Below are positions 13,333 to 29,072 of a stretch of 64,000 nt of DNA, piece by piece. A program made the position numbers and the translations under genes. Under the pieces are notes generated by a model. It had not been told where the DNA came from and ran no database searches. It saw only the letters and a list, made by a program, of their open reading frames with translations. Origin of the DNA: a virus (lineage: Duplodnaviria > Caudoviricetes); IMG/VR virus record IMGVR_UViG_3300032216_001981, positions 18,704-82,703 of that record, one strand, 5' to 3'. Within the stretch, counting starts at the first letter, position 1; each line of letters begins with the position of its first letter.

Positions 13333-15650
13333 AATTTACAGGCCTCGCAGGATTCTTCACCATCAAAGTCAATCGGTTCTAGCATTGGGGGTGTATCTTC
13401 TGCTTCGGCCTTAGCACCTTGTTTATTCACGAGGCTATAATAAAAAGTTTTCAATCCCCAATAGTGACTTTGCATCAAGTTCTTAGCAATCAGTGTAGTT
13501 GGGACTTTTCTGTCAGCAAAATGTGCAGGGTTATAAAAAGTATTTGTACTGATACTTTGATCCACATAGGCCGCAATCACTGCGGCTGTTTTTAAATAAC
13601 CATCACAGTCTTTCTGTTCCCACATGAGTTGATACCGGTTCTTTAACTTGTGATATTCAGGAACAACCTGTGTAAAACTTCCAGCTTTGCTTTCTTTAAC
13701 CGAGATCAAACTCATGGGCATTTCAATACCATTGGTTGAATTGATTACAACACTAGAACTTTCAACTGGGGCAACTGCCATTAAAGTAGCATTACGCACA
13801 CCATATTGCCGCATGTTGGTTCTTAGTGTTTCCCAATCCAGTTCAGGAGCAAAGTCTGCCAAGTCATTAACACCTGGGGCACGACGCTCCCATGGAAACT
13901 CACCTTGACCGTAACGTGTTCTATCACTGTGCAAGCAAGCACCACGCTCGCGGGCAAGTTCCACAGTGGCTTCGGTTAAATAAAATGCCTGATGTTCCAT
14001 CCATGTTTTAACATCTTGCAGTGCATCCTGCTCGCCGTATTGGTAACTGCGTTTGGCATGCCAGTAGGCCAAGTTAGTGACACCAATGCCCAAGGGTTGA
14101 ATTTCGTCATTGCTTAGTCGGCTTTGTACGCTGAGGAAATCTTGGTAGTCAAGTATGTTGCATAGGCTACGTTGCAAGATACGGCAAGCACGGCGCATGT
14201 CTTCGGGATTACGGAATGCTCCCCAGTTGATTGAACCCAAGGTACACAAAGCAATTCTGCCCGTGTCGTCATCTAATCTCTTAAAAGGTTTGGTGGGTAA
14301 TAGTATTTCACAGCACAGGTTACTTTGATAGATGGTGTGATACTCGGGATCAAACGGTCCTTGATTCTGAACATTGTCAATGTATACAAGATAGATACGC
14401 CCAGTATCTGTGCGTTCTTTCAGTATGCCCGATTTAAATACTTCTTCTGCACTCATTGTTTTCTTACGCAGGTCTCGACGCTGTTCATACTCAACATATA
14501 GTTTTTCAAACTGTTCTGTATTTTTATAAAAAGCCTCGTACAAGTCTGGAACTTCGTTGGGATCAAAGAAAGTAATATCTTCTTTATTTTTAAATCTACG
14601 CCAAAAGAAAGCACTGAGTACTACACCATAGTCCATGTGCCTAACTCGAGTTTCTTCTGTGCCTTGATTGTTTTTTAAAACAATTAAATCATCGAACTGA
14701 TGATGCCATATGGGATAAAACACTGTGGCACTTGCGTTGCGAATACCACCTTGACTGCAACTACGCAAGTCGCCAAACCATTTTTTAAGGAATGGAATCA
14801 TACCTGTGTGCATGATTTCTCCACCACGTATGGGCGAGCCCAAGGGACGCAGTCTTCCAATTTCCAAACCAATACCGGCACGTTTGCTGGCATACTTGGC
14901 CATCATCTCACCCGATGCAAAGATGCTGTCAAGGTCATCGTCGGCCTTGATCAGCACACATGAACTAAATTGTTTTGTGGGAGTACCCAAGCCGGCCAAC
15001 ACTGGAGTGGCCAGTGTAAAAAGTCCATCACTGGCACAGTTGTAATATTCTTTAATATAACGCATACGTGCCGAGTTGGGTTCTTCTCTATGGAACACTG
15101 TTGCAGCCGCAACCATGTATCTAATTTGTGGAGTTTCGTATGTTTGTCGTGTTGCACGATTTTTAACAAGATATTTTTCAATCAACTGCTCAATAGCAGC
15201 ATAGGAATACTGTTCGTCTCGATCATGATCCAACATGTCGTTCATTCTGTTCCAGTCATCTTCAGTGTACCACTCCAGTAGTTCTGGGGTATATAATCCT
15301 GTGGCGACATTTGTTTTTACGATTTCATACAGATGTGGAACTGCGTATGAACCATACACATCTTTGCGTAACATGCTTAAACGTTGTTTGCCTGCCACGT
15401 ATTGATAATTGACATGTCCCACATCGGGATTGGTTTCTACATCGATGAGATCCACTATGGCTCTTAGGGTTATTTCGTCAATTTCTTTGGTTGTAATACC
15501 GTCATAAAAGTGCGGTTGGCTTTTAATTTCTATCATACTCTGACTGACGTCAGCAATTCCAGTGCATATTTTATTGATTTGTGTTTGCCACTTTTCCACT
15601 GCCAACGGTTCTTTTGTGCCGTTTCTTTTTACAACTTGAATTGATGTCAT
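13329..15650 (-). CDS. nrdA: Ribonucleotide reductase class Ia alpha subunit with ATP cone
   Basis: VVKRNG, QFSSCVL, QSNLCCEI, VAPVESSS, DQSISTN, GLKTFYY, C-terminal CEAC. Confidence 0.98.
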   Translation of the reverse strand: MTSIQVVKRNGTKEPLAVEKWQTQINKICTGIADVSQSMIEIKSQPHFYDGITTKEIDEITLRAIVDLIDVETNPDVGHVNYQYVAGKQRLSMLRKDVYGSYAVPHLYEIVKTNVATGLYTPELLEWYTEDDWNRMNDMLDHDRDEQYSYAAIEQLIEKYLVKNRATRQTYETPQIRYMVAAATVFHREEPNSARMRYIKEYYNCASDGLFTLATPVLAGLGTPTKQFSSCVLIKADDDLDSIFASGEMMAKYASKRAGIGLEIGRLRPLGSPIRGGEIMHTGMIPFLKKWFGDLRSCSQGGIRNASATVFYPIWHHQFDDLIVLKNNQGTEETRVRHMDYGVVLSAFFWRRFKNKEDITFFDPNEVPDLYEAFYKNTEQFEKLYVEYEQRRDLRKKTMSAEEVFKSGILKERTDTGRIYLVYIDNVQNQGPFDPEYHTIYQSNLCCEILLPTKPFKRLDDDTGRIALCTLGSINWGAFRNPEDMRRACRILQRSLCNILDYQDFLSVQSRLSNDEIQPLGIGVTNLAYWHAKRSYQYGEQDALQDVKTWMEHQAFYLTEATVELARERGACLHSDRTRYGQGEFPWERRAPGVNDLADFAPELDWETLRTNMRQYGVRNATLMAVAPVESSSVVINSTNGIEMPMSLISVKESKAGSFTQVVPEYHKLKNRYQLMWEQKDCDGYLKTAAVIAAYVDQSISTNTFYNPAHFADRKVPTTLIAKNLMQSHYWGLKTFYYSLVNKQGAKAEAEDTPPMLEPIDFDGEESCEACKL

Positions 15651-18137: not shown

Positions 18138-19208
18138 ATGTCTTCGATCATTGTGTCAAATTCAAAGAGAACAGAATTTGATTTTTCTAATATACACATC
18201 AATACACAGTATAACATATTGTTGCATTGTGTCTACGATCCATTTAATCATTTTGATACAGAATTTGAATTTTTAAAAGATCCTGCCTTGACTAAAGATT
18301 GGTTGGTGATACTGTGGCATCCGGTCGAGGCAGGCGTATTTGAACCCGAGTGGATAAACAAATTAGACTCTATAGTTGCCTCCGCCACCTATAAACTAGT
18401 GTATCTAACTGGGTGTAGCCATAAACCAAACATACACACAATAATACCACATGACTTTGATATTAGATTCTTTCCAGTATTTGATACCAGAGTCATAGAC
18501 ATATGGTCACGTAACATGCCTGGTGCACAAGAAATTACCACAATCAAAACAAAAAAGTTCATGTGTCTCAACGCCAAAGATATTTCTCACAGACGATATA
18601 TCCTGGCCAAACTGATGCAACATGATTTATTGTCTCAAGGCACAGTCAGCTATCAATGCACTCAAGGAAAAAACCTTTTAAATTTTGATACAGGACAGGG
18701 GTTTACAGAAAACCAATTGACACGCATACGTGAAATGTCGGCCTTGACCGATAACCTTATTCCCATGGTGCTGGATGGGTCGGATGTAATCAACGGCCTG
18801 CCGCGTGAATTGTTTTTAGATGCATACCTTGGCATCATTGGAGAAACACATTTTATAAATACTCCATTTGGATTTAATCGAAGTTTTGTATCAGAAAAAA
18901 CATTTAATGCAATAGCTAATAATCAAATGTTTATTGTTGTTGGTCAGGCTGGTAGCTTGGATTTACTACGATCTTTGGGATATCAAACTTTTGATCCTGT
19001 GATAAACGAAACCTATGACACCATTGTCAACAACAATGGCGATAGACTTGAAGCAGTTGCTGATGAAATAATTAGATTTGTTTCAAGGCCAATTGAACAA
19101 ATTCAACAAGATTATCTACAGGTCATTGACATAATAGAGCATAACAGGAACCTGCTGTTCTCGCAATCCCTAGAACGTCGACTACAACAGATGATAGACA
19201 CATTATGA
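18138..19208 (+). CDS. Glycosyltransferase-like protein (GT10/exostosin-like C-terminus)
   Basis: IIGETHF...FVSEKTFNAI...FIVVG...LLRSLGYQTF; paralog of 19920. Confidence 0.55.
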   Translation: MSSIIVSNSKRTEFDFSNIHINTQYNILLHCVYDPFNHFDTEFEFLKDPALTKDWLVILWHPVEAGVFEPEWINKLDSIVASATYKLVYLTGCSHKPNIHTIIPHDFDIRFFPVFDTRVIDIWSRNMPGAQEITTIKTKKFMCLNAKDISHRRYILAKLMQHDLLSQGTVSYQCTQGKNLLNFDTGQGFTENQLTRIREMSALTDNLIPMVLDGSDVINGLPRELFLDAYLGIIGETHFINTPFGFNRSFVSEKTFNAIANNQMFIVVGQAGSLDLLRSLGYQTFDPVINETYDTIVNNNGDRLEAVADEIIRFVSRPIEQIQQDYLQVIDIIEHNRNLLFSQSLERRLQQMIDTL

Positions 19209-19939
19209 ATATACTGGTAAGTGGGTGTAGCTTTACACAATGGCCTGCGTATCCCGGGGGGCCTAATATATGTTGGCCAAGGTGTTTACAAGAATTAAGA
19301 CCCGAGTTCAACATACGATCAGTGGCCGAAGCCGCAGCAGGCAATCAATATATTTGTGACAGTGTCATACGCGGAGTATTGGAAGATGCTCCTGATCAGG
19401 TCCTGGTGATGTGGTCTGGAATGAGTCGGCTGGATTACCTAACCAGCTTGGAAGATCCTGCATGGAATAGTTTATTTGACAGTTACGGTTTTTATCGTAG
19501 ATTACCGCATGGAAAATTGGGCTGGATATTCAGCGGTGGGAAAATGGGCACTTGGTTTAAACATCCAGTGGCTCATAAAATGTTTTATGAACAGTATAAA
19601 GTATCAAGTCCTTTAAGTTTGGCTGCGATCAATCTTGCTGAAATAGTTAAATTACAAAATTTTCTGATAGCAAAAGGCGTCCCTTATCGATTTATGAGTT
19701 ATGTGAACTATTGGACTCTTGGAGAAAATTTAAGTCCCAATGGGGATTTTGGTGTCGTTGACTTTCCCGAAATTCAGTATCTCATCAAAGAGATTGATTT
19801 TGATCAATGGATTTTTACCGACGAATGCAACGGAATATACGAGCTTGCTAAATCCAATGGCGATTTTCAAGCAGACGGATTTCATCCTGGAGATAAAACA
19901 CAACAGCAATGGGCTCAAATTATAAACGATCAGATATAA
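19205..19939 (+). CDS. SGNH/GDSL-like hydrolase or acyltransferase
   Basis: SGCSFT, AAAGNQYI, DGFHPG; paralog of 11222. Confidence 0.65.
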   Translation: MNILVSGCSFTQWPAYPGGPNICWPRCLQELRPEFNIRSVAEAAAGNQYICDSVIRGVLEDAPDQVLVMWSGMSRLDYLTSLEDPAWNSLFDSYGFYRRLPHGKLGWIFSGGKMGTWFKHPVAHKMFYEQYKVSSPLSLAAINLAEIVKLQNFLIAKGVPYRFMSYVNYWTLGENLSPNGDFGVVDFPEIQYLIKEIDFDQWIFTDECNGIYELAKSNGDFQADGFHPGDKTQQQWAQIINDQI

Positions 19940-21654: not shown

Positions 21655-22074
21655 TTAGCTGCGTTTTCCTAGAGCACGGTTAGCCATACTGGAAACTGTT
21701 TTTTCTGGAGGGGTTTTTACAGCTTCGCCTGCTTCACCGGGCACTTCTACATCTGTGTCGACTGGGTTGATGAACACGTATTTTTGCCCGTTTTCATCAT
21801 CTTTGATATTGCCAACTATACTTTTTACAGCTTCGTTGTGTTGTTTGGCTTTTTGCAGTGTTTCCAATGTGAATGCTTCGGCACCGGGCTTGCTTCGTAC
21901 TAAATTGATCAATGCTTCCACAGAGATTTTTGGCACTGTGGCATGATCACTACTGAATTGCAATTCTCTCAGTGTGTCAATCAATGCATCGTTGGCGGCA
22001 TGATCAGCATCGTCTTCTACGAAACCGGCCAATCCGTCTTCGTTCAACGGGCGAGCAAATTCACTGAATCTCAT
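21655..22074 (-). CDS. Acidic protein with putative head-targeting leader
   Basis: MRFSEFARPLNE N-terminus. Confidence 0.65.
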   Translation of the reverse strand: MRFSEFARPLNEDGLAGFVEDDADHAANDALIDTLRELQFSSDHATVPKISVEALINLVRSKPGAEAFTLETLQKAKQHNEAVKSIVGNIKDDENGQKYVFINPVDTDVEVPGEAGEAVKTPPEKTVSSMANRALGKRS

Positions 22075-22772
22075 TAACGCTTTTCTCTGCCGAGTTCTTC
22101 TGGACCGCCCACAGCTGCATCGGTGCCATCAAATCCATCGCCCGCTGCGGCAGGAGCTTCTGGGGCAGGGGCCATACCCGAGTCAGGCGACGGAGCACCC
22201 ATGCCAGTGTCGGCACCCATTCCGCCCATGCTCATGTCGGGAACAGCTTCTCCGGTCAATGCTCTAGCAGCACCATCGGCCTGTTCACGACCGGTACTGA
22301 GTTGTTGCCATAATTGTTGTAACAAAGGAGTAACTGTGCCTTTGAAACTTTCGGCCTGCTGTTCACCAATTTGATCACGGATTGTGTCTAACAAAGCCGG
22401 TAACTGCTCGTTTTGCATTTTACCAATTTTTTCCAACATGTCCTGTATCGAGTCAACCATGTCTTTGGCAGCCAATGTAGCTTCGGCCTTGGCCATTTCG
22501 CTTTCACGCAACAGTACATGGCGATTTTCCACCATCCAACGATTTAAACTTTCGCGAACCATCAACAGTTCCATGTACTTGGGATTCTTTTCAGCTGTGT
22601 GTACACCGTGTGTACGCTTGACAGCATTCAAGCTTTCTGTGATACCGGTGGCCAATTGATAGGCCTTTTTAAATGTTAAATTGTCGTAGTCGATTCGAAA
22701 TCCAAATCTGCTTTCAACTACTTGATTAATTCGGTTAGCTCTTGGCTGGTTGCTCATTTCTGATAATTTCAT
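22074..22772 (-). CDS. Helical protein, possible prohead core/scaffold
   Basis: MKLSEM leader, LLRESE, Pro/Ala/Gly-rich tail; CTAAATA upstream near 22801. Confidence 0.55.
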   Translation of the reverse strand: MKLSEMSNQPRANRINQVVESRFGFRIDYDNLTFKKAYQLATGITESLNAVKRTHGVHTAEKNPKYMELLMVRESLNRWMVENRHVLLRESEMAKAEATLAAKDMVDSIQDMLEKIGKMQNEQLPALLDTIRDQIGEQQAESFKGTVTPLLQQLWQQLSTGREQADGAARALTGEAVPDMSMGGMGADTGMGAPSPDSGMAPAPEAPAAAGDGFDGTDAAVGGPEELGREKR

Positions 22773-22833
22773 GGTTTATTTTTTTCCCAAACTTATGTAG
22801 TATTTAGTCGGTTAGTGTAAATCTTTCATTCTT

Positions 22834-23367
22834 TTACTGTTGCCAAATTTTTAAGTTTTTGGCCTGTGCAACATGTTTATTTAACTCTGTTTGTGATATC
22901 TGCAACCTTAATCTTGCATCTGATAGTCTAGCACTCCATATACTTATGCTGTCCAGCTTCAAGTTTTTTCTTGCACGAGCTAGACTGGCCTCGTAGTGTG
23001 TGACATCGTTTTTTAATCGCAACACTTCAGTGTCGGTGTCGCGTATTCTTGTGGCTATAACGCCAAGTCTCACATGCTCGCATAAACAATAAAAAATAGC
23101 CGATTGTTTGCTGTCAAATATGTGTATTTTATCTTGATTTCTTGTGGTCAATTCCCAATAGCCCAAGTTAGGCACAATATGAAAATTACCAATGTTGTAG
23201 CCGCCGTGTGGCAAGGGCCATATCAGTGGAACATTTTTATTGTTGTTTAAACGAGAAAATTCTCTTTGTGTCCAAGCAGATATGTACTGAGTTGCTGCTG
23301 CTATGGCTTGATCAACTTGTTGTTTTGTAGGTTCTACTTTGTGGTTTTTGATAGGTAATACGTCCAT
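22834..23367 (-). CDS. Hypothetical protein with C-terminal coiled coil
   Basis: 177-aa ORF. Confidence 0.65.
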   Translation of the reverse strand: MDVLPIKNHKVEPTKQQVDQAIAAATQYISAWTQREFSRLNNNKNVPLIWPLPHGGYNIGNFHIVPNLGYWELTTRNQDKIHIFDSKQSAIFYCLCEHVRLGVIATRIRDTDTEVLRLKNDVTHYEASLARARKNLKLDSISIWSARLSDARLRLQISQTELNKHVAQAKNLKIWQQ

Positions 23368-23542
23368 TTTCTTGAATTCTCAATAACACATCTTTGTTAA
23401 CCAAACTGTTGGCAATTACCTGCTGTCTTGGGTCCAATGCAGATTTGTGCAACACTGCGTTGTCTGCAAATTGATCCAACAGTTCTGCCTCTTCGTTGGT
23501 TACGGGCAGACTAATGTTATTTAAGAGTTCTACTATACGCAT
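23312..23542 (-). CDS. Small hypothetical protein
   Basis: MRIVELLNN leader; 76 aa. Confidence 0.6.
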   Translation of the reverse strand: MRIVELLNNISLPVTNEEAELLDQFADNAVLHKSALDPRQQVIANSLVNKDVLLRIQENGRITYQKPQSRTYKTTS

Positions 23543-24838: not shown

Positions 24839-24905
24839 GTTAATTCTCCTTGTTGTTAATGAGCTGTTACGCTACATGCAAATATTTATGATAGAAGATA
24901 AAATT

Positions 24906-25883
24906 TTACAGTTTTAATGCTTTGGACAATTTATGTTTCAACTGCTGTTGGTATTGTTCCTTGAGTTGCGTGTTCCAGCCCTGTTGTCTTGCTTGTTCCC
25001 AAATACTTGCACGTTGTTCAAAAAATGTATTTTTAATTTTATCCAAAGAAGTGAGTTTTTTATCGCCCTTGGCAGTGCCTACCTCGCCCGACTTAACTGT
25101 GATCATAGACGCAAATACTCCCAGTATTCTATGTTTACTGCGTGGATTCCTGACAGTTTTTTGTGCCTGTAGTACTAGTTGATCAAAGCTTTGGTTTAAA
25201 TCGTATTGATATAGCAGTCGTTGTAGATCACTGTAATTTTGTGAATACCAAACAACTTCTCTACCGGCCTGTTTGACAGTGCCGGGTTCGTATGTAACTT
25301 TTCTCAACTCCAATCTAACACTGGAGAGGTTAAACTCGTATTCTTGATCGGGTTCAGTCAATGCTGGTGCTTTGATGCTCAGCCGTTTAAACAACACCTG
25401 TGGGTCTGTTTCAATTGTGGCAATTTTAACCAATGCCAACACTAGGCCTTGCTTTTCTGCCGGCATGTCGAGAAAGGACTGTTTAAATTCAGCTTCCACT
25501 GGATCCTTTGCAATGATGTTGTCAATCTGTACCGAGTAACCCAAACGATCATCGTGATAACGGACAGTGACTATCTCTCCTGAGTTGTAGCTACGTTTGC
25601 CCGCATGCTTGACACTGGTAAAAGGTACTATAGTAGTTTCTGGATGTGCGTGGAAAAATGCCTGTAGTTTCTTTTTAGTAACTGCTTTGTCGTCATTACT
25701 CTGTATGTGGGCTATAAGATCTATGTCGCCAAAATCCTGTTTGTTTGGATCGCTGTTGTAGCTACCAGATTTTCTTAAGTCAACAAAACCAGGAAATTTA
25801 GCGATAAGGGGCTTGTATGATGCGGCAAAAGCATCAAAGTCTGCACGACTACGTATTCTTTCTGCACCCGCTACTCCGCTCAT
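24906..25883 (-). CDS. Pol-beta-superfamily nucleotidyltransferase 2
   Basis: SGSYNSDPNKQDFGDIDLIAH (GS-x11-DxD), third Asp in VQIDNI. Confidence 0.72.
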   Translation of the reverse strand: MSGVAGAERIRSRADFDAFAASYKPLIAKFPGFVDLRKSGSYNSDPNKQDFGDIDLIAHIQSNDDKAVTKKKLQAFFHAHPETTIVPFTSVKHAGKRSYNSGEIVTVRYHDDRLGYSVQIDNIIAKDPVEAEFKQSFLDMPAEKQGLVLALVKIATIETDPQVLFKRLSIKAPALTEPDQEYEFNLSSVRLELRKVTYEPGTVKQAGREVVWYSQNYSDLQRLLYQYDLNQSFDQLVLQAQKTVRNPRSKHRILGVFASMITVKSGEVGTAKGDKKLTSLDKIKNTFFEQRASIWEQARQQGWNTQLKEQYQQQLKHKLSKALKL

Positions 25884-27382
25884 GTCGTTTCCGTTCTATA
25901 TTTTGCTAATGCAGATGTATTCGGTAAGAATTTGCCAGAAAGACCTAGTGTTTTTTGACGCTTGATCCATTCGTTTTGAAGATCATCTGGGATATCTGCT
26001 CGTGTAGAATCTAAAATCTTAAAGTAGATGTTGAGCAGACTGTTGTATTGTTGTGTGTTCATACGCATCTTGAATAGCCTATGTAGTTTATAGTAGTCCT
26101 CGGTATCATCTCTGTTTATCTCAAAACCTAATCTATCACCTAATATTTTTAGAGCCTTGTCGGGTATATGAGCCACTACGTCTCTGGACTCCTTGTCCTT
26201 TACTCCGCTGACGTGATTGAAACTGAGGTTAGCTACTTGGAAAGCCGATAGCATCAGCTGTGTTCTATGTAGTCCCTTGACATTAGAGTAATGTGCATAC
26301 GGAGCCGAGTGATAACTGAACAGGAGCCATTCTAAATTTCCCACCATCCAATCTATCTGTACACCAGTACCTACATATTTACCAGCGGGATTTACTTGTG
26401 GATAGACTCCAAATATATTGCCATCGTTGACCTTTTTCTCGTCACAGTAGAGAGTAGGAGCATTGGCATTGATGTATCTTACTAATTCTTGGAGAAATGC
26501 TCTCATGAGAATCTGTTGCGGAGTTGCCGTCTTGGCCTTTGATTTAAATATTTCGAATTGCTTGGTCACAGCGTCCGGATCAAGTCCCCACTCTGTGATA
26601 CTTTTTGGAGTTATTTCTTGATCTACGATAGAGTGTGAGCTGACAGCTAGATCAATATCTCCTGCTTCTTTTGGTCCTAAATCCATCCATGGCTCATCTG
26701 GGGTATTTCTAAAGACCCAGAAGTGCCCTGTATCTTCGGTCTTGAATACATCTTTGTTAGCTTGGCCTTTATATTCTAGGGGAAGTTCCTTGCGAGATGG
26801 TACCAACCCTTTAACTTCTAGACTACTAGATCCTACAGAATGGAAATGTTGCCTATCAAATATGGCAGCCTTTTGTGGGAAAATACTTTTCAATTCATTA
26901 AAATAGGCAGTGAGTGTAGGTTCAATATTTTCTAAAGATATCTTACCGGTCCTTCCTTTGAAGACATTACCGCCTTCCATGATGGGTTCCCATGCCATGG
27001 GCTTGGCACCGCGGGCAATGGGCTTGAATCCATGTCTTTTATATAGTTTGGTCAGTGAGGCCGAACTTATTCTGCCGTGACTCCAAGGCATTAGTGTCAA
27101 TCTAATACCCGATGCCTGTGCCTGGCGTTGCAGTTCCTGTATGGCTCTACTGCCCACACCTTGACGCTGTTCGGGTCCGGCCATGATCCAGTCTATTTCC
27201 ACTGTGCGAGCATCGGCACCGGGTTTGAGTTTGAATGCAGCAAAAGTTTGTTCTTCTCCCTCACCCCACACCATGACTCGGTCTGCTTGTCCATAGGGCC
27301 ACTTGGGATATTGACTGTATACTTGATCTATCCACTGCTGTGCTAAACCAGCAGATTCAACAATGACTTCGCGTATTTTCAT
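25880..27382 (-). CDS. GNAT acetyltransferase fused to Pol-beta-like nucleotidyltransferase 1
   Basis: RQGVGS acetyl-CoA motif and LYKRHGF; then EGGNVF...VGSS-(insert)-AGDIDLAV...VQIDWM...KGLHR. Confidence 0.72.
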   Translation of the reverse strand: MKIREVIVESAGLAQQWIDQVYSQYPKWPYGQADRVMVWGEGEEQTFAAFKLKPGADARTVEIDWIMAGPEQRQGVGSRAIQELQRQAQASGIRLTLMPWSHGRISSASLTKLYKRHGFKPIARGAKPMAWEPIMEGGNVFKGRTGKISLENIEPTLTAYFNELKSIFPQKAAIFDRQHFHSVGSSSLEVKGLVPSRKELPLEYKGQANKDVFKTEDTGHFWVFRNTPDEPWMDLGPKEAGDIDLAVSSHSIVDQEITPKSITEWGLDPDAVTKQFEIFKSKAKTATPQQILMRAFLQELVRYINANAPTLYCDEKKVNDGNIFGVYPQVNPAGKYVGTGVQIDWMVGNLEWLLFSYHSAPYAHYSNVKGLHRTQLMLSAFQVANLSFNHVSGVKDKESRDVVAHIPDKALKILGDRLGFEINRDDTEDYYKLHRLFKMRMNTQQYNSLLNIYFKILDSTRADIPDDLQNEWIKRQKTLGLSGKFLPNTSALAKYRTETT

Positions 27383-28791
27383 TTTGTTTTATCTAGTAAC
27401 AATGCTGAAAAATCTTTTGATGATTCCGCCAATGCCGGAGTTCCATTTGTTTGTTGATTTTGTGCTCGCTTATTGGCATAATACTGTTTCATATTGGGAT
27501 CACTGCTTGATAATTTGTAATTTACTTTATTAACTGGCGTTGTGGAGGTTGTACCGACATCCTTGAAACGTTGTGTTGGTAGTATTGCTCCTGGAGTTTT
27601 GCGATCAGGGCTTGTTACTGTGGCTGTACCTTGGGGATTTTTAAACGGAGGGGCAGTTACACTAGGAGTTGAGCTAGTGGGTACATTGTATGCAGTTTTC
27701 GCTTTAGTTGAGGCTGGCGCCGGTGCAACAGTCGGTGCCGCCGGAGGGGTTGTCTGAACCGGTGCAACAGTCGGTGCCGCCGGAGCATTTGCATCCTTGG
27801 GAAATCTGTCATCCACTGGGGCAGTTGCAGCCGGTGCTGTAGTAGCAGTTGTTGGATTGGCAGTGGCCTGTCCACGTGCCACTGCACGACGCCCAACATA
27901 GTCAGGACTGGAAGGAGTAGCCTGTGATTGTGCCTGTTGATCCAACAACGATGCCATGTTCGCATCAACCTGTTTATTATCGGGACCAAACCATTGATTT
28001 CCAAGTTTTTTGTAAGGTGTTGTTTTTCCAGATCGGTCTTTGATTGATACAGAATTCATACCAGTGGGCTGGTCGGCCACGTTACCGACGCCAGCATTGG
28101 CTCCCCGTTTAACTGCATTGGCGATTCCTGATGCTACATTGCCGACAGCATTGCCAATTTTAGTGCCTAGACTGTTGGTACTTTGTGGTGTTGTTGCCGG
28201 AGCTTGAGTTGCTTGAGCTTGGGTTTGAGCTTGGGCTCCTCTTGCTTGAGCCAATTGTGCTTGCAAACCGCTGATGGCAGTTTTATGTTGATCAATTTGA
28301 TTTTCAATTGATGCAGCATCTACCCCTGCACTCGATGCCGAAGTGTTAGATGCAGTTGCGGTGGGTTGTGCAACAGGATCTTGTTTAAAAACTTTACCTA
28401 ATTTATCTGCTGGCTCCCCACCTACAGCGTTGGCTCCGGTGTTGAATCCCTTTGAGGCGGCACGAGCAACACCGGTGGTGGCACCTCCGGCCACAGCACC
28501 AGCTCCACCGGCGACATCTCCGGCCACTGTTGCGGCTGCTTTTCCTAGGCCTTTTGCTCCGCTTTTAACAGCATTGTAAGCACCAGCCACTGGTCTAGCC
28601 ACCATTTGATTGCCAAGTGCTTTGCCAGCACCACCAATGGCACTGGCGGCACCGGCCACAGCATCGCCAGTTTTGTTTACGTTCTTAGTAAACTTTTGAG
28701 CACCCTTGGTTATTTTTTTAGCACCTTTTTGGATATCATTAAATCCAAACTCATCTAACTGCTGTTCGTTTACAATGTCATTAATCTTCAC
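27379..28791 (-). CDS. Ala/Gly/Pro/Thr-rich low-complexity protein, probably head-internal
   Basis: Start moved to GTG 28791 (SD AAAAGG, 8 nt) giving MKINDIVNEQQLDE. Confidence 0.65.
   Translation of the reverse strand: MKINDIVNEQQLDEFGFNDIQKGAKKITKGAQKFTKNVNKTGDAVAGAASAIGGAGKALGNQMVARPVAGAYNAVKSGAKGLGKAAATVAGDVAGGAGAVAGGATTGVARAASKGFNTGANAVGGEPADKLGKVFKQDPVAQPTATASNTSASSAGVDAASIENQIDQHKTAISGLQAQLAQARGAQAQTQAQATQAPATTPQSTNSLGTKIGNAVGNVASGIANAVKRGANAGVGNVADQPTGMNSVSIKDRSGKTTPYKKLGNQWFGPDNKQVDANMASLLDQQAQSQATPSSPDYVGRRAVARGQATANPTTATTAPAATAPVDDRFPKDANAPAAPTVAPVQTTPPAAPTVAPAPASTKAKTAYNVPTSSTPSVTAPPFKNPQGTATVTSPDRKTPGAILPTQRFKDVGTTSTTPVNKVNYKLSSSDPNMKQYYANKRAQNQQTNGTPALAESSKDFSALLLDKTK
27720..27785. 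repeat. 27-bp direct repeat, 39-bp period (PAAPTVAP x2)
   Basis: ccggtgcaacagtcggtgccgccggag at 27720-27746 and 27759-27785. Confidence 0.9.
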
Positions 28792-29050
28792 GATTTTCAC
28801 CTTTTAGTCGTCTTACACCACGGATAAATTTATTGGGATCTTGACTGCGGATACTGTTTAACAAGCGATTTTCCAACTGCTGTGCTGTTTCATCGTCGTA
28901 GTTTTCTCGTATGTAATTGATTAGATTCACAGCACCTGCAATAATGTTACTGGCACGTGATTCTACAAGATTTTCTCGATCACGATGCACCAACATGCTG
29001 TCTAGTTCATCTAAGATACTACGGGATCTCTTTTGCAAGACTTGCTCCAA
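28781..29050 (-). CDS. Small helical hypothetical protein
   Basis: 89 aa; ATAAATA box upstream near 29062. Confidence 0.7.
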   Translation of the reverse strand: MEQVLQKRSRSILDELDSMLVHRDRENLVESRASNIIAGAVNLINYIRENYDDETAQQLENRLLNSIRSQDPNKFIRGVRRLKGENRED

Positions 29051-29072
29051 TTTATGTTATATTTATGTGGAG

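Follow-up and report, generated by a model that had tools for sequence, protein, structure and literature searches.

Comparison with described packaged and injected proteins

Gene A, which occupies positions 25,880 to 27,382 on the minus strand of a 64,000-nucleotide stretch of viral DNA (positions 18,704 to 82,703 of IMG/VR record IMGVR_UViG_3300032216_001981; this whole stretch is termed the window), codes for a 500-amino-acid protein that is probably a precursor polyprotein of the same type as the ejected head proteins of phage T4. It is paired with gene B, which codes for a second, distinct nucleotidyltransferase (NTase). The T4 capsid-targeting sequence (CTS) is MKTYQEFIAE (PMC8442874), the T4 protease gp21 cleaves after Glu in I/LxE motifs (PMC12991175), and the T4 enzyme Alt is trimmed at ITE-6 and LTE-619 (PMC5694885). 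Like T4 IPI-III and Alt, the product of gene A carries a short leader resembling this targeting sequence, an I/LxE motif after the leader, and, as in Alt, an enzymatic cargo. Further points of likeness are a hypervariable cargo locus and a gp21-family protease that is encoded in related genomes. However, the cargo differs from that of T4 in comprising a GNAT domain and NTases resembling family X polymerases, and there are several modules per precursor with an internal junction site. In addition, the window phage is a jumbo phage of the Rak2/PA5oct type rather than a T-even phage, and the arrangement is proposed here from sequence comparison.

Polyvalent proteins of phages and conjugative elements (Iyer et al. 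2017) have a domain repertoire that includes GNAT, Pol-beta NTase, and zincin peptidase domains (PMC5512222). They share with the gene A product a multi-domain layout, predicted delivery with DNA, and predicted processing into effectors. Unlike the modules of A and B, polyvalent GNATs are RimI-like and occur with ADP-ribosyltransferase (ART) domains, and the NTases are four-strand minimal forms of Firmicutes elements. Polyvalent proteins also differ from A in having neither a T4-type leader nor LxE junctions, and their processing is ascribed to built-in metallopeptidases.

Polymerase X (Pol X) of African swine fever virus (ASFV) is a repair polymerase carried in the particle of a large DNA virus. 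In their structural models, A and B match it in having palm and thumb domains without the 8-kDa deoxyribose phosphate (dRP) lyase domain and the helix-hairpin-helix (HhH) fingers domain. Superposition covers 166 of 176 residues for the core of A (5hr9, Z 8.6) and 163 of 176 for B (Z 11.0). Identity is about 9-14%, and A and B differ from the ASFV enzyme in carrying extra C-terminal helical domains and in forming an obligate paralog pair.

The GNAT of A is small and of mobile-element origin, as is AcrVA5 (6IUF), to which its match is weak and partial. AcrVA5 acetylates Cas12a as a phage or prophage anti-CRISPR protein and is not delivered by virions, in contrast to the role proposed here for the window GNAT. 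Finally, RlaP (PF10127) is an RNA-ligase-associated Pol-beta NTase of jumbo phages (PMC12776372). The likeness is that Pol-beta NTases are common in jumbo phages, and diverged A-like genes lie near genes with a KxDG motif (in PA5oct, Atu_ph07, and contig L008, a syntenic relative described below). However, membership of A or B in the RlaP family was rejected because neither gave a PF10127 match at E <= 0.1, and their fold matches are to Pol X.

The first-pass annotation of this DNA knew of no described system with this architecture. T4 CTS/gp21 processing, Alt, and the polyvalent proteins do provide a known frame, whereas a paired family X-like NTase cargo, a multi-site modular precursor, and the very wide distribution reported below were not found described in the literature searched.

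Architecture of genes A and B

The two genes comprise the following features.

25880..27382, minus strand: gene A (500 amino acids), with a leader, a small GNAT domain, a PIME/GGNVF junction, and a Pol-beta NTase
27356..27382, minus strand: leader of A, MKIREVIVE (amino acids 1-9), resembling a capsid-targeting sequence and ending in IVE
26975..27355, minus strand: GNAT module of A (amino acids 10-136), ending in the IME junction at 26975-26983
25880..26974, minus strand: core of A (amino acids 137-500), a Pol-beta superfamily NTase with a predicted family X-like palm and thumb, then a C-terminal helical part
26663..26830, minus strand: insertion of ~55 amino acids in A (amino acids 185-240), between the GS and DxD motifs, modeled as a low-confidence loop
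24906..25883, minus strand: gene B (325 amino acids), with palm and thumb at amino acids 1-234 and a helical part at 235-325

Direct reading of the open reading frames (ORFs) confirmed what the first-pass annotation had reported on this architecture, namely the coordinates of both genes, the MKIREVIVE leader, RQGVGS (amino acids 73-78), LYKRHGF (113-119), the PIME|GGNVF junction (133-141), the GS-x11-DID motif of B, and the ATGA overlap that couples B to A. The product of B is basic, with an isoelectric point (pI) of 9.4, and carries no leader in the window. The ~55 amino acids that separate the GS motif of A from its DxD motif are an insertion confined to the subclade of the window (P0001-P0005), and its sequence holds no canonical I/LxE site.

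The view that A is a modular GNAT-NTase fusion was initially argued in part from GC content. The direction of that contrast holds (0.50 in the leader and GNAT part versus 0.41 in the NTase part, with a gene mean of 0.42±0.04), but its size had been overstated and partly reflects amino acid composition. GC content at third codon positions (GC3) is 0.45 and 0.37 for the two parts, with a gene mean of 0.39±0.065. This gap of 0.08 amounts to roughly one standard deviation across the genes of the genome, and GC content is the weakest part of the observation. The modular fusion itself is borne out by homologs, which swap the N-terminal module ahead of E|GGNVF as the annotation had proposed to check.

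Conservation of the leader and the junction

Conservation at the junction was surveyed in the top 120 homologs of A, 112 of which carry at least four residues ahead of GGNVF. The P1 residue is Glu in 110 of these 112 proteins, and P3 is Leu, Ile, or Val in 110 of 112. What precedes GGNVF ranges from a stub of four amino acids, through leaders of 9-34 amino acids, to whole modules of 74-298 amino acids, one of which carries an HExxH motif. Six A homologs and the A protein of Flavobacterium phage immuto start at M|GGNVF. Because these leaderless members begin in this way, GG marks the start of the A fold, and whatever precedes it is an addition.

The T4 CTS has close counterparts among the leaders of the family (MKTFAQYLAE, MITFKEFITE, and MRIIELLTE are examples), and the positions corresponding to IVE and IME of the window are [L/I/V]xE in nearly all relatives. 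The same pattern recurs in fused and extended forms of B. The joint reads [V/I/L]xE|SG in each of the five A-B fusions, and the 11 B proteins with an N-terminal extension all begin with MI.E|SG or MLNE|SG, whereas other B proteins start at M|SG. Since M|SG and xE|SG starts alternate, the same mature N-terminus of B could arise either by removal of Met or by cleavage. A module that forms part of a fusion in one phage may be an independent upstream gene in another.

The GNAT module shows the same features. In all seven full-length homologs of this module, [L/I/V]xE is present at the leader position that matches IVE of the window. Elsewhere the module is either a stand-alone gene or joined to other C-terminal modules, and its leader always ends in [L/I/V]xE. 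When something follows the module, the junction takes the form P[V/I/L].E.

Pairing and distribution of A and B

At E <= 1e-3, the A family comprises 1,765 clusters and the B family at least 500 clusters in a metagenomic protein collection clustered at 90% identity. Identity among homologs is 50-70% in the typical case, and the contigs that carry them reach 360 kb. Atlas clusters for A and B are viral and unnamed, carrying only the label 'hypothetical'. Phage immuto is the only cultured phage with clear homologs of both genes, which are its adjacent genes 181 and 182, in the same order.

Of 80 IMG/VR loci that carry A, 76 have B next on the same strand, 68 of these at a distance of no more than ~40 nucleotides, and three of the four remaining loci end at a contig edge. 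Thus, A and B form an almost obligate, adjacent pair in virus-only families. The fusion of GNAT to A is rare, since none of these 80 loci has a GNAT. B is often fused to a CTP_transf_like domain (an NMNAT-type HIGH transferase). The idea that this partner is always released by cleavage was rejected, as [LIV]xE is present in just 9 of 16 linkers.

Predicted folds and catalytic residues of the NTases

The product of B has an SGS motif (G40-S41) followed after 11 residues by D53-I54-D55, with a third Asp (D121) in QIDN. Alignment of 28 sequences showed no variation at G40, S41, D53, D55, and D121. The core of A carries the corresponding series GS, GDIDL, and QID, and none of the 37 aligned family members departs from G184-S185, D242, D244, and D344. 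AlphaFold modeling gave a predicted local distance difference test (pLDDT) score of 89 for B and scores above 90 for amino acids 140-431 of A, and the IME|GG junction falls within a low-pLDDT linker.

The annotation had expected Pol-beta folds for both NTases, with conserved Asp residues, and both expectations agree with the models and alignments. It had also pointed to cGAS-like and toxin-like NTases, and here the outcome was different, as the best structural matches are family X DNA polymerases aligned over palm and thumb. A Foldseek search with the B model placed Pol lambda, mu, and beta on top (E 7e-6). VIA-align, which is independent of Foldseek, matched B to the Pol beta catalytic domain (Z 11.9 over 183 amino acids), TdT (Z 11.7), and Thermus PolX (Z 10.8), and matched the core of A to Pol beta (4rpx, Z 9.0 over 178 amino acids). 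For both proteins, matches spanning 160-190 residues (palm plus thumb) are family X enzymes every time. TUTases, poly(A) polymerases, and CD-NTases align to B only over the ~105-residue palm (Z 7-10; CD-NTases, Z 7-8.4). A search of BFVD returned giant-virus family X polymerases, a 277-amino-acid protein of Atu_ph07, and a 657-amino-acid A-B fusion.

Sequence searches were largely silent on these two proteins. Pfam gave no match for the core of A or for B, and no Pol X palm or thumb model scored above its gathering threshold; on the B part of the fusion P0106, the family X model reached 20.9 bits, below the cut-off of 25. No Pol X or other polymerase sequence in the PDB was found by phmmer or profile searches with A and B, and PHROGs, NCBIfam, and PADLOC returned nothing for either. 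No CD-NTase or MNT model in Pfam or PADLOC matched A or B. Similarity between A and B, motif order aside, was detectable neither by BLASTP nor by hhalign. We therefore do not call A and B Pol X by sequence, because no Pfam Pol X model reached threshold, and, on the evidence of their models, place the core of A and B in the Pol-beta superfamily, with an architecture like that of minimal family X enzymes.

Because the best matches are family X polymerases with palm and thumb, B is basic, and pairing is strict, the predicted substrates of both NTases are likelier to be nucleic-acid 3′ ends than host proteins.

Residues 74-134 of B (25482-25664) also gave weak profile matches to Gloeobacter phycobilisome linker repeats (9k9w; E 7e-4 for the whole chain), which are probably due to chance.

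The GNAT module

The GNAT of A scores 21.3 bits against PF00583 (cut-off 20.7), and homologs score 24.6 and 22.4 bits. Acetyl-CoA motif A (R73-x-G75-V-G77-S-R-A) and residues Y114, G118, and F119 are invariant in eight sequences. When a profile of the module was compared with PDB sequences, the sole match was AcrVA5, with an E value of 3.2e-4 over 64 residues of the acetyl-CoA-binding core. This is a weak but pointed lead toward protein acetylation as a form of counter-defence. NCBIfam gave only a RimI match, far below threshold. The model of amino acids 1-136 of A has pLDDT values of 38-80 and matches GNAT chains at a Z of about 5 only. This part of the model is unreliable because MAFFT misaligned the GNAT homologs in the input alignment.

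In some proteins (P0246, P0243, and P0025 were examined), the GNAT is followed by a module with the signature ENFADG ... HWCANMKSGR, which is also present in the N-terminal extension of the A homolog that has the HExxH motif. The varied contexts of this module are a further sign of module shuffling.

A link to virion proteins of PA5oct

The source of the window is an 82.7-kb viral record with 116 ORFs that is judged 15% complete. Judged by synteny, the phage is kin to the Rak2/PA5oct-type jumbo phages. In PA5oct, genes for a primase and a DnaB helicase are followed by gp259 and then by a run of proteins, extending to gp247, most of which were flagged as virion proteins by electrospray ionization tandem mass spectrometry (ESI-MS/MS). 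Both gp259 and gp247 are homologs of window genes, and A and B of the window occupy the interval that matches this run. One member of the run that was detected by mass spectrometry (MS), gp253, is a diverged, shorter homolog of A (hhalign probability 95.6%, E 1e-8, full-length alignment) with the aligned motifs SGNAF, LGSTGK..TGDIDL, and YQVDFMHG..WLK..KGSHR.

A scan of the PA5oct genome for leaders found six ORFs with [LIV]xE at residues 9-10, five of which code for virion proteins detected by MS: gp333 (which adjoins the portal gene), gp254, gp246, gp105, and gp104. The background is 93 of 461 (binomial P about 0.002), and this enrichment is supportive of a virion role rather than proof of it. 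Peptidase_S77, the family of the gp21-type protease, is encoded by PA5oct, immuto, and eight of ten long viral contigs that carry A. Three of the ten contigs are at least 90% complete, and each of these encodes it.

Proposed function and alternative explanations

We propose that A is a precursor polyprotein of T4-type ejected head proteins which, paired with B, supplies enzymes that act after ejection. The nine-residue leader would direct A to the prohead scaffolding core, where a gp21-type prohead protease would cut after Glu9 (IVE|S) and Glu136 (IME|G). Cleavage would free a small AcrVA5-like GNAT and a 41-kDa minimal family X-like NTase with the mature N-terminus GGNVF. B, the obligate partner paralog, would work with the core of A, probably as a heteromer, and is probably co-packaged. 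Both NTases have intact catalytic residues and would most likely add nucleotides to nucleic-acid 3′ ends right after ejection, whether to fill gaps, repair ends, or add tails on the incoming genome or on RNA. The most likely role of the GNAT would be acetylation of a host protein, to counter defence or aid take-over early in infection. Comparison of homologs supports the packaged-polyprotein idea well, and on balance we consider this model probable.

Several observations weigh against this model. The virion MS link comes from PA5oct and a diverged homolog, not from the window phage or from close homologs of A and B. Some non-structural enzymes are also on the list of proteins that MS detected in PA5oct. 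A prohead protease was not found in the phage's own record, which is the 15%-complete fragment described above. B has no leader here, and the A proteins of immuto and PA5oct (gp253) are likewise leaderless, so a leader is not required for the A family. The NMNAT-like fusions of B carry the cleavage motif in only 9 of 16 linkers, and in many relatives the neighbors of A and B are not head genes but genes for chaperones, ferritin, nucleotide metabolism, and replication. The Pol X fold match is moderate (Z 9-12 at about 10-15% identity) with no Pfam Pol X model at cut-off, and the structure model of the GNAT part of A is poor.

Some of these observations would be expected if A and B were ordinary cytoplasmic enzymes of nucleic-acid repair or of nucleotide or NAD metabolism, with the leader serving as an N-terminal helix or start context and [LIV]xE as an uncleaved linker. 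The pair in immuto and many contigs adjoins genes for primase, exonuclease, 5′-nucleotidase, dCMP deaminase, ferritin, ClpB/DnaJ, and DNA polymerase, and such a role would suit both the frequent NMNAT-type fusions of B and the leaderless family members. However, P1 Glu and P3 Leu, Ile, or Val are nearly universal across unrelated leader lengths and inserted modules. The junction also recurs in A-B fusions and N-extended B proteins, and leaderless folds start exactly at GG or SG. In addition, leader-bearing ORFs are overrepresented in the virion proteome of PA5oct, to which gp253 also belongs. The genomic setting has a parallel in T4, where internal-protein genes are likewise dispersed among non-structural genes. 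We therefore regard a purely cytoplasmic role as unlikely.

A different possibility accepts packaging but assigns other targets to the NTases, either host proteins (MNT- or Fic-type AMPylation) or nucleotide signals (cGAS/DncV-like). The Pol-beta palm is indeed common to CD-NTases, MenT toxins, and TUTases, which match the models at Z 7-10, and polyvalent injected proteins have minimal Pol-beta NTases that are predicted to modify proteins (PMC5512222). Such matches, however, span the palm only, whereas the top matches over 160-190 residues all belong to family X; the BFVD search yielded giant-virus Pol X, and CD-NTase and MNT models in PADLOC and Pfam gave no match. These targets thus seem rather improbable to us. 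Least probable by some way is that A and its neighbors are core- or scaffold-associated proteins active only inside the head, for instance in organizing DNA, or degraded there, so that their enzymatic domains would play no part in the host. This might be suggested by the T4 core proteins gp67 and gp68, which have the same kind of sites and are degraded, and by the basic, low-complexity 473-amino-acid protein encoded next to A. However, neither the catalytic triads of A and B nor the acetyl-CoA motif of the GNAT varies across diverged homologs, which speaks for selected enzymatic activity, and such activity needs NTPs or acetyl-CoA, both available in the cell.

Neighboring genes and variable cargo in relatives

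The following additional genes lie in the operon of the packaged-polyprotein candidate and its partner or elsewhere in the same cluster.

28781..29050, minus strand: 89-amino-acid gene at the head of the operon, homologous to a virion structural protein (PA5oct gp259, Atu_ph07 gp068)
27379..28800, minus strand: 473-amino-acid gene with the leader MKIVKINDIVNE; the product is basic (pI 9.9), rich in Ala, Thr, Pro, and Gln, and of low complexity
21655..23542, minus strand: leader-bearing genes of the same cluster, coding for 139 amino acids (MRFSEFARPLNE), 232 amino acids (MKLSEM..), and 76 amino acids (MRIVELL..)

The 89-amino-acid protein matches phrog_11854 (E 9e-16) and gave tblastn matches in PA5oct, Atu_ph07, and Phosso. 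The stop codon of the 473-amino-acid gene overlaps the start codon of A (ATGA), as read directly, and the syntenic contig L008 encodes a 520-amino-acid homologous counterpart at the same position. This protein looks like a candidate bulk DNA-associated internal protein. The 232-amino-acid gene (22074-22772) is the homolog of the PA5oct virion protein gp247. A leader pattern search matched six ORFs of the record, five of which fall between 21655 and 28800, in agreement with the earlier report of neighbors with similar leaders.

The annotation had also placed these genes among late genes. The evidence for this is limited to two ATAAATA boxes, one located 16 nucleotides upstream of the 89-amino-acid gene (29051-29072, minus strand) and the other 51 nucleotides upstream of the 140-amino-acid gene after B (24839-24905, minus strand). 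ATAAATA resembles the core of T4 late promoters, and 11 of its 20 copies in the record lie no more than 60 nucleotides upstream of an ORF start.

In L008, other cargo takes the place of GNAT-A and B, flanked by the low-complexity protein on one side and by the conserved downstream genes on the other. It consists of a 269-amino-acid A-like NTase (MIFTE|GG...GGNVF), a stand-alone GNAT that is 85% identical to that of the window, and a DUF6267 protein with a leader. In Atu_ph07 and Phosso, A-like genes occupy the corresponding place.

A KWDG motif is present in the DUF6267 protein (L008:2341-3264), whose leader is MILLEFITMLAE|G, and an EKIDG motif in PA5oct gp256 (L002:14119-15459). Comparison of a DUF6267 Atlas cluster with the core of A gave template modeling (TM) scores of 0.52-0.58. 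These two proteins, both encoded near A-like genes, could possibly be ligases or capping-type nucleotidyltransferases. A ligase reading of the DUF6267 protein, PA5oct gp256, and Atu_ph07 gp066 was not upheld, as it had the KxDG motif alone in its favor and pairwise and PDB searches were uninformative.

In Atu_ph07, the A-like NTase gp065 (which starts MGGRAF) and the KxDG-motif protein gp066 lie directly upstream of an array. The array proper, gp062-gp058, consists of five tandem paralogs of ~255 amino acids with M[RK]W.QL.E leaders and a YRG motif, which are possibly Alt-like ADP-ribosyltransferases. It is preceded by gp063, a 362-amino-acid ORF with a similar leader and no YRG in the N-terminal stretch that was read (L109:12597-17529, including gp063). 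In L009, a 225-kb relative, an Fe/Mn superoxide dismutase (18954-19493) begins MYNFIKYVVE|G and a dCMP-deaminase-family protein (13381-14295) begins MRAKDFIRE|S, and thus other enzymes have a leader of the same kind.

Implications for T4-related and jumbo phages

A broader proposal, which we offer tentatively, is that large aquatic and jumbo phages may load modular polyproteins by means of a T4-type leader and LxE sites. The constant element would be a heteromeric family X-like pair, joined by swappable AcrVA5-like GNAT, NMNAT-like, zincin-like, and possibly ligase-like modules, and the whole might serve as a so far undescribed injected kit for nucleic-acid repair, tailing, and anti-defence before phage gene expression. 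Ejection of A and B with the DNA, if real, would make this very common unannotated pair of large environmental phages the first phage head cargo that resembles polymerase X. A grammar of leaders and LxE sites, if it holds true, would allow the injected proteome of uncultured T4-related and jumbo phages to be read from sequence alone; in relatives, a superoxide dismutase, a deaminase-like protein, and ART-like arrays are further enzymes with leaders. It would likewise point to proteins that could be tested for a part in immediate-early counter-defence, among them an acetyltransferase similar to AcrVA5 that would reach the host in protein form.

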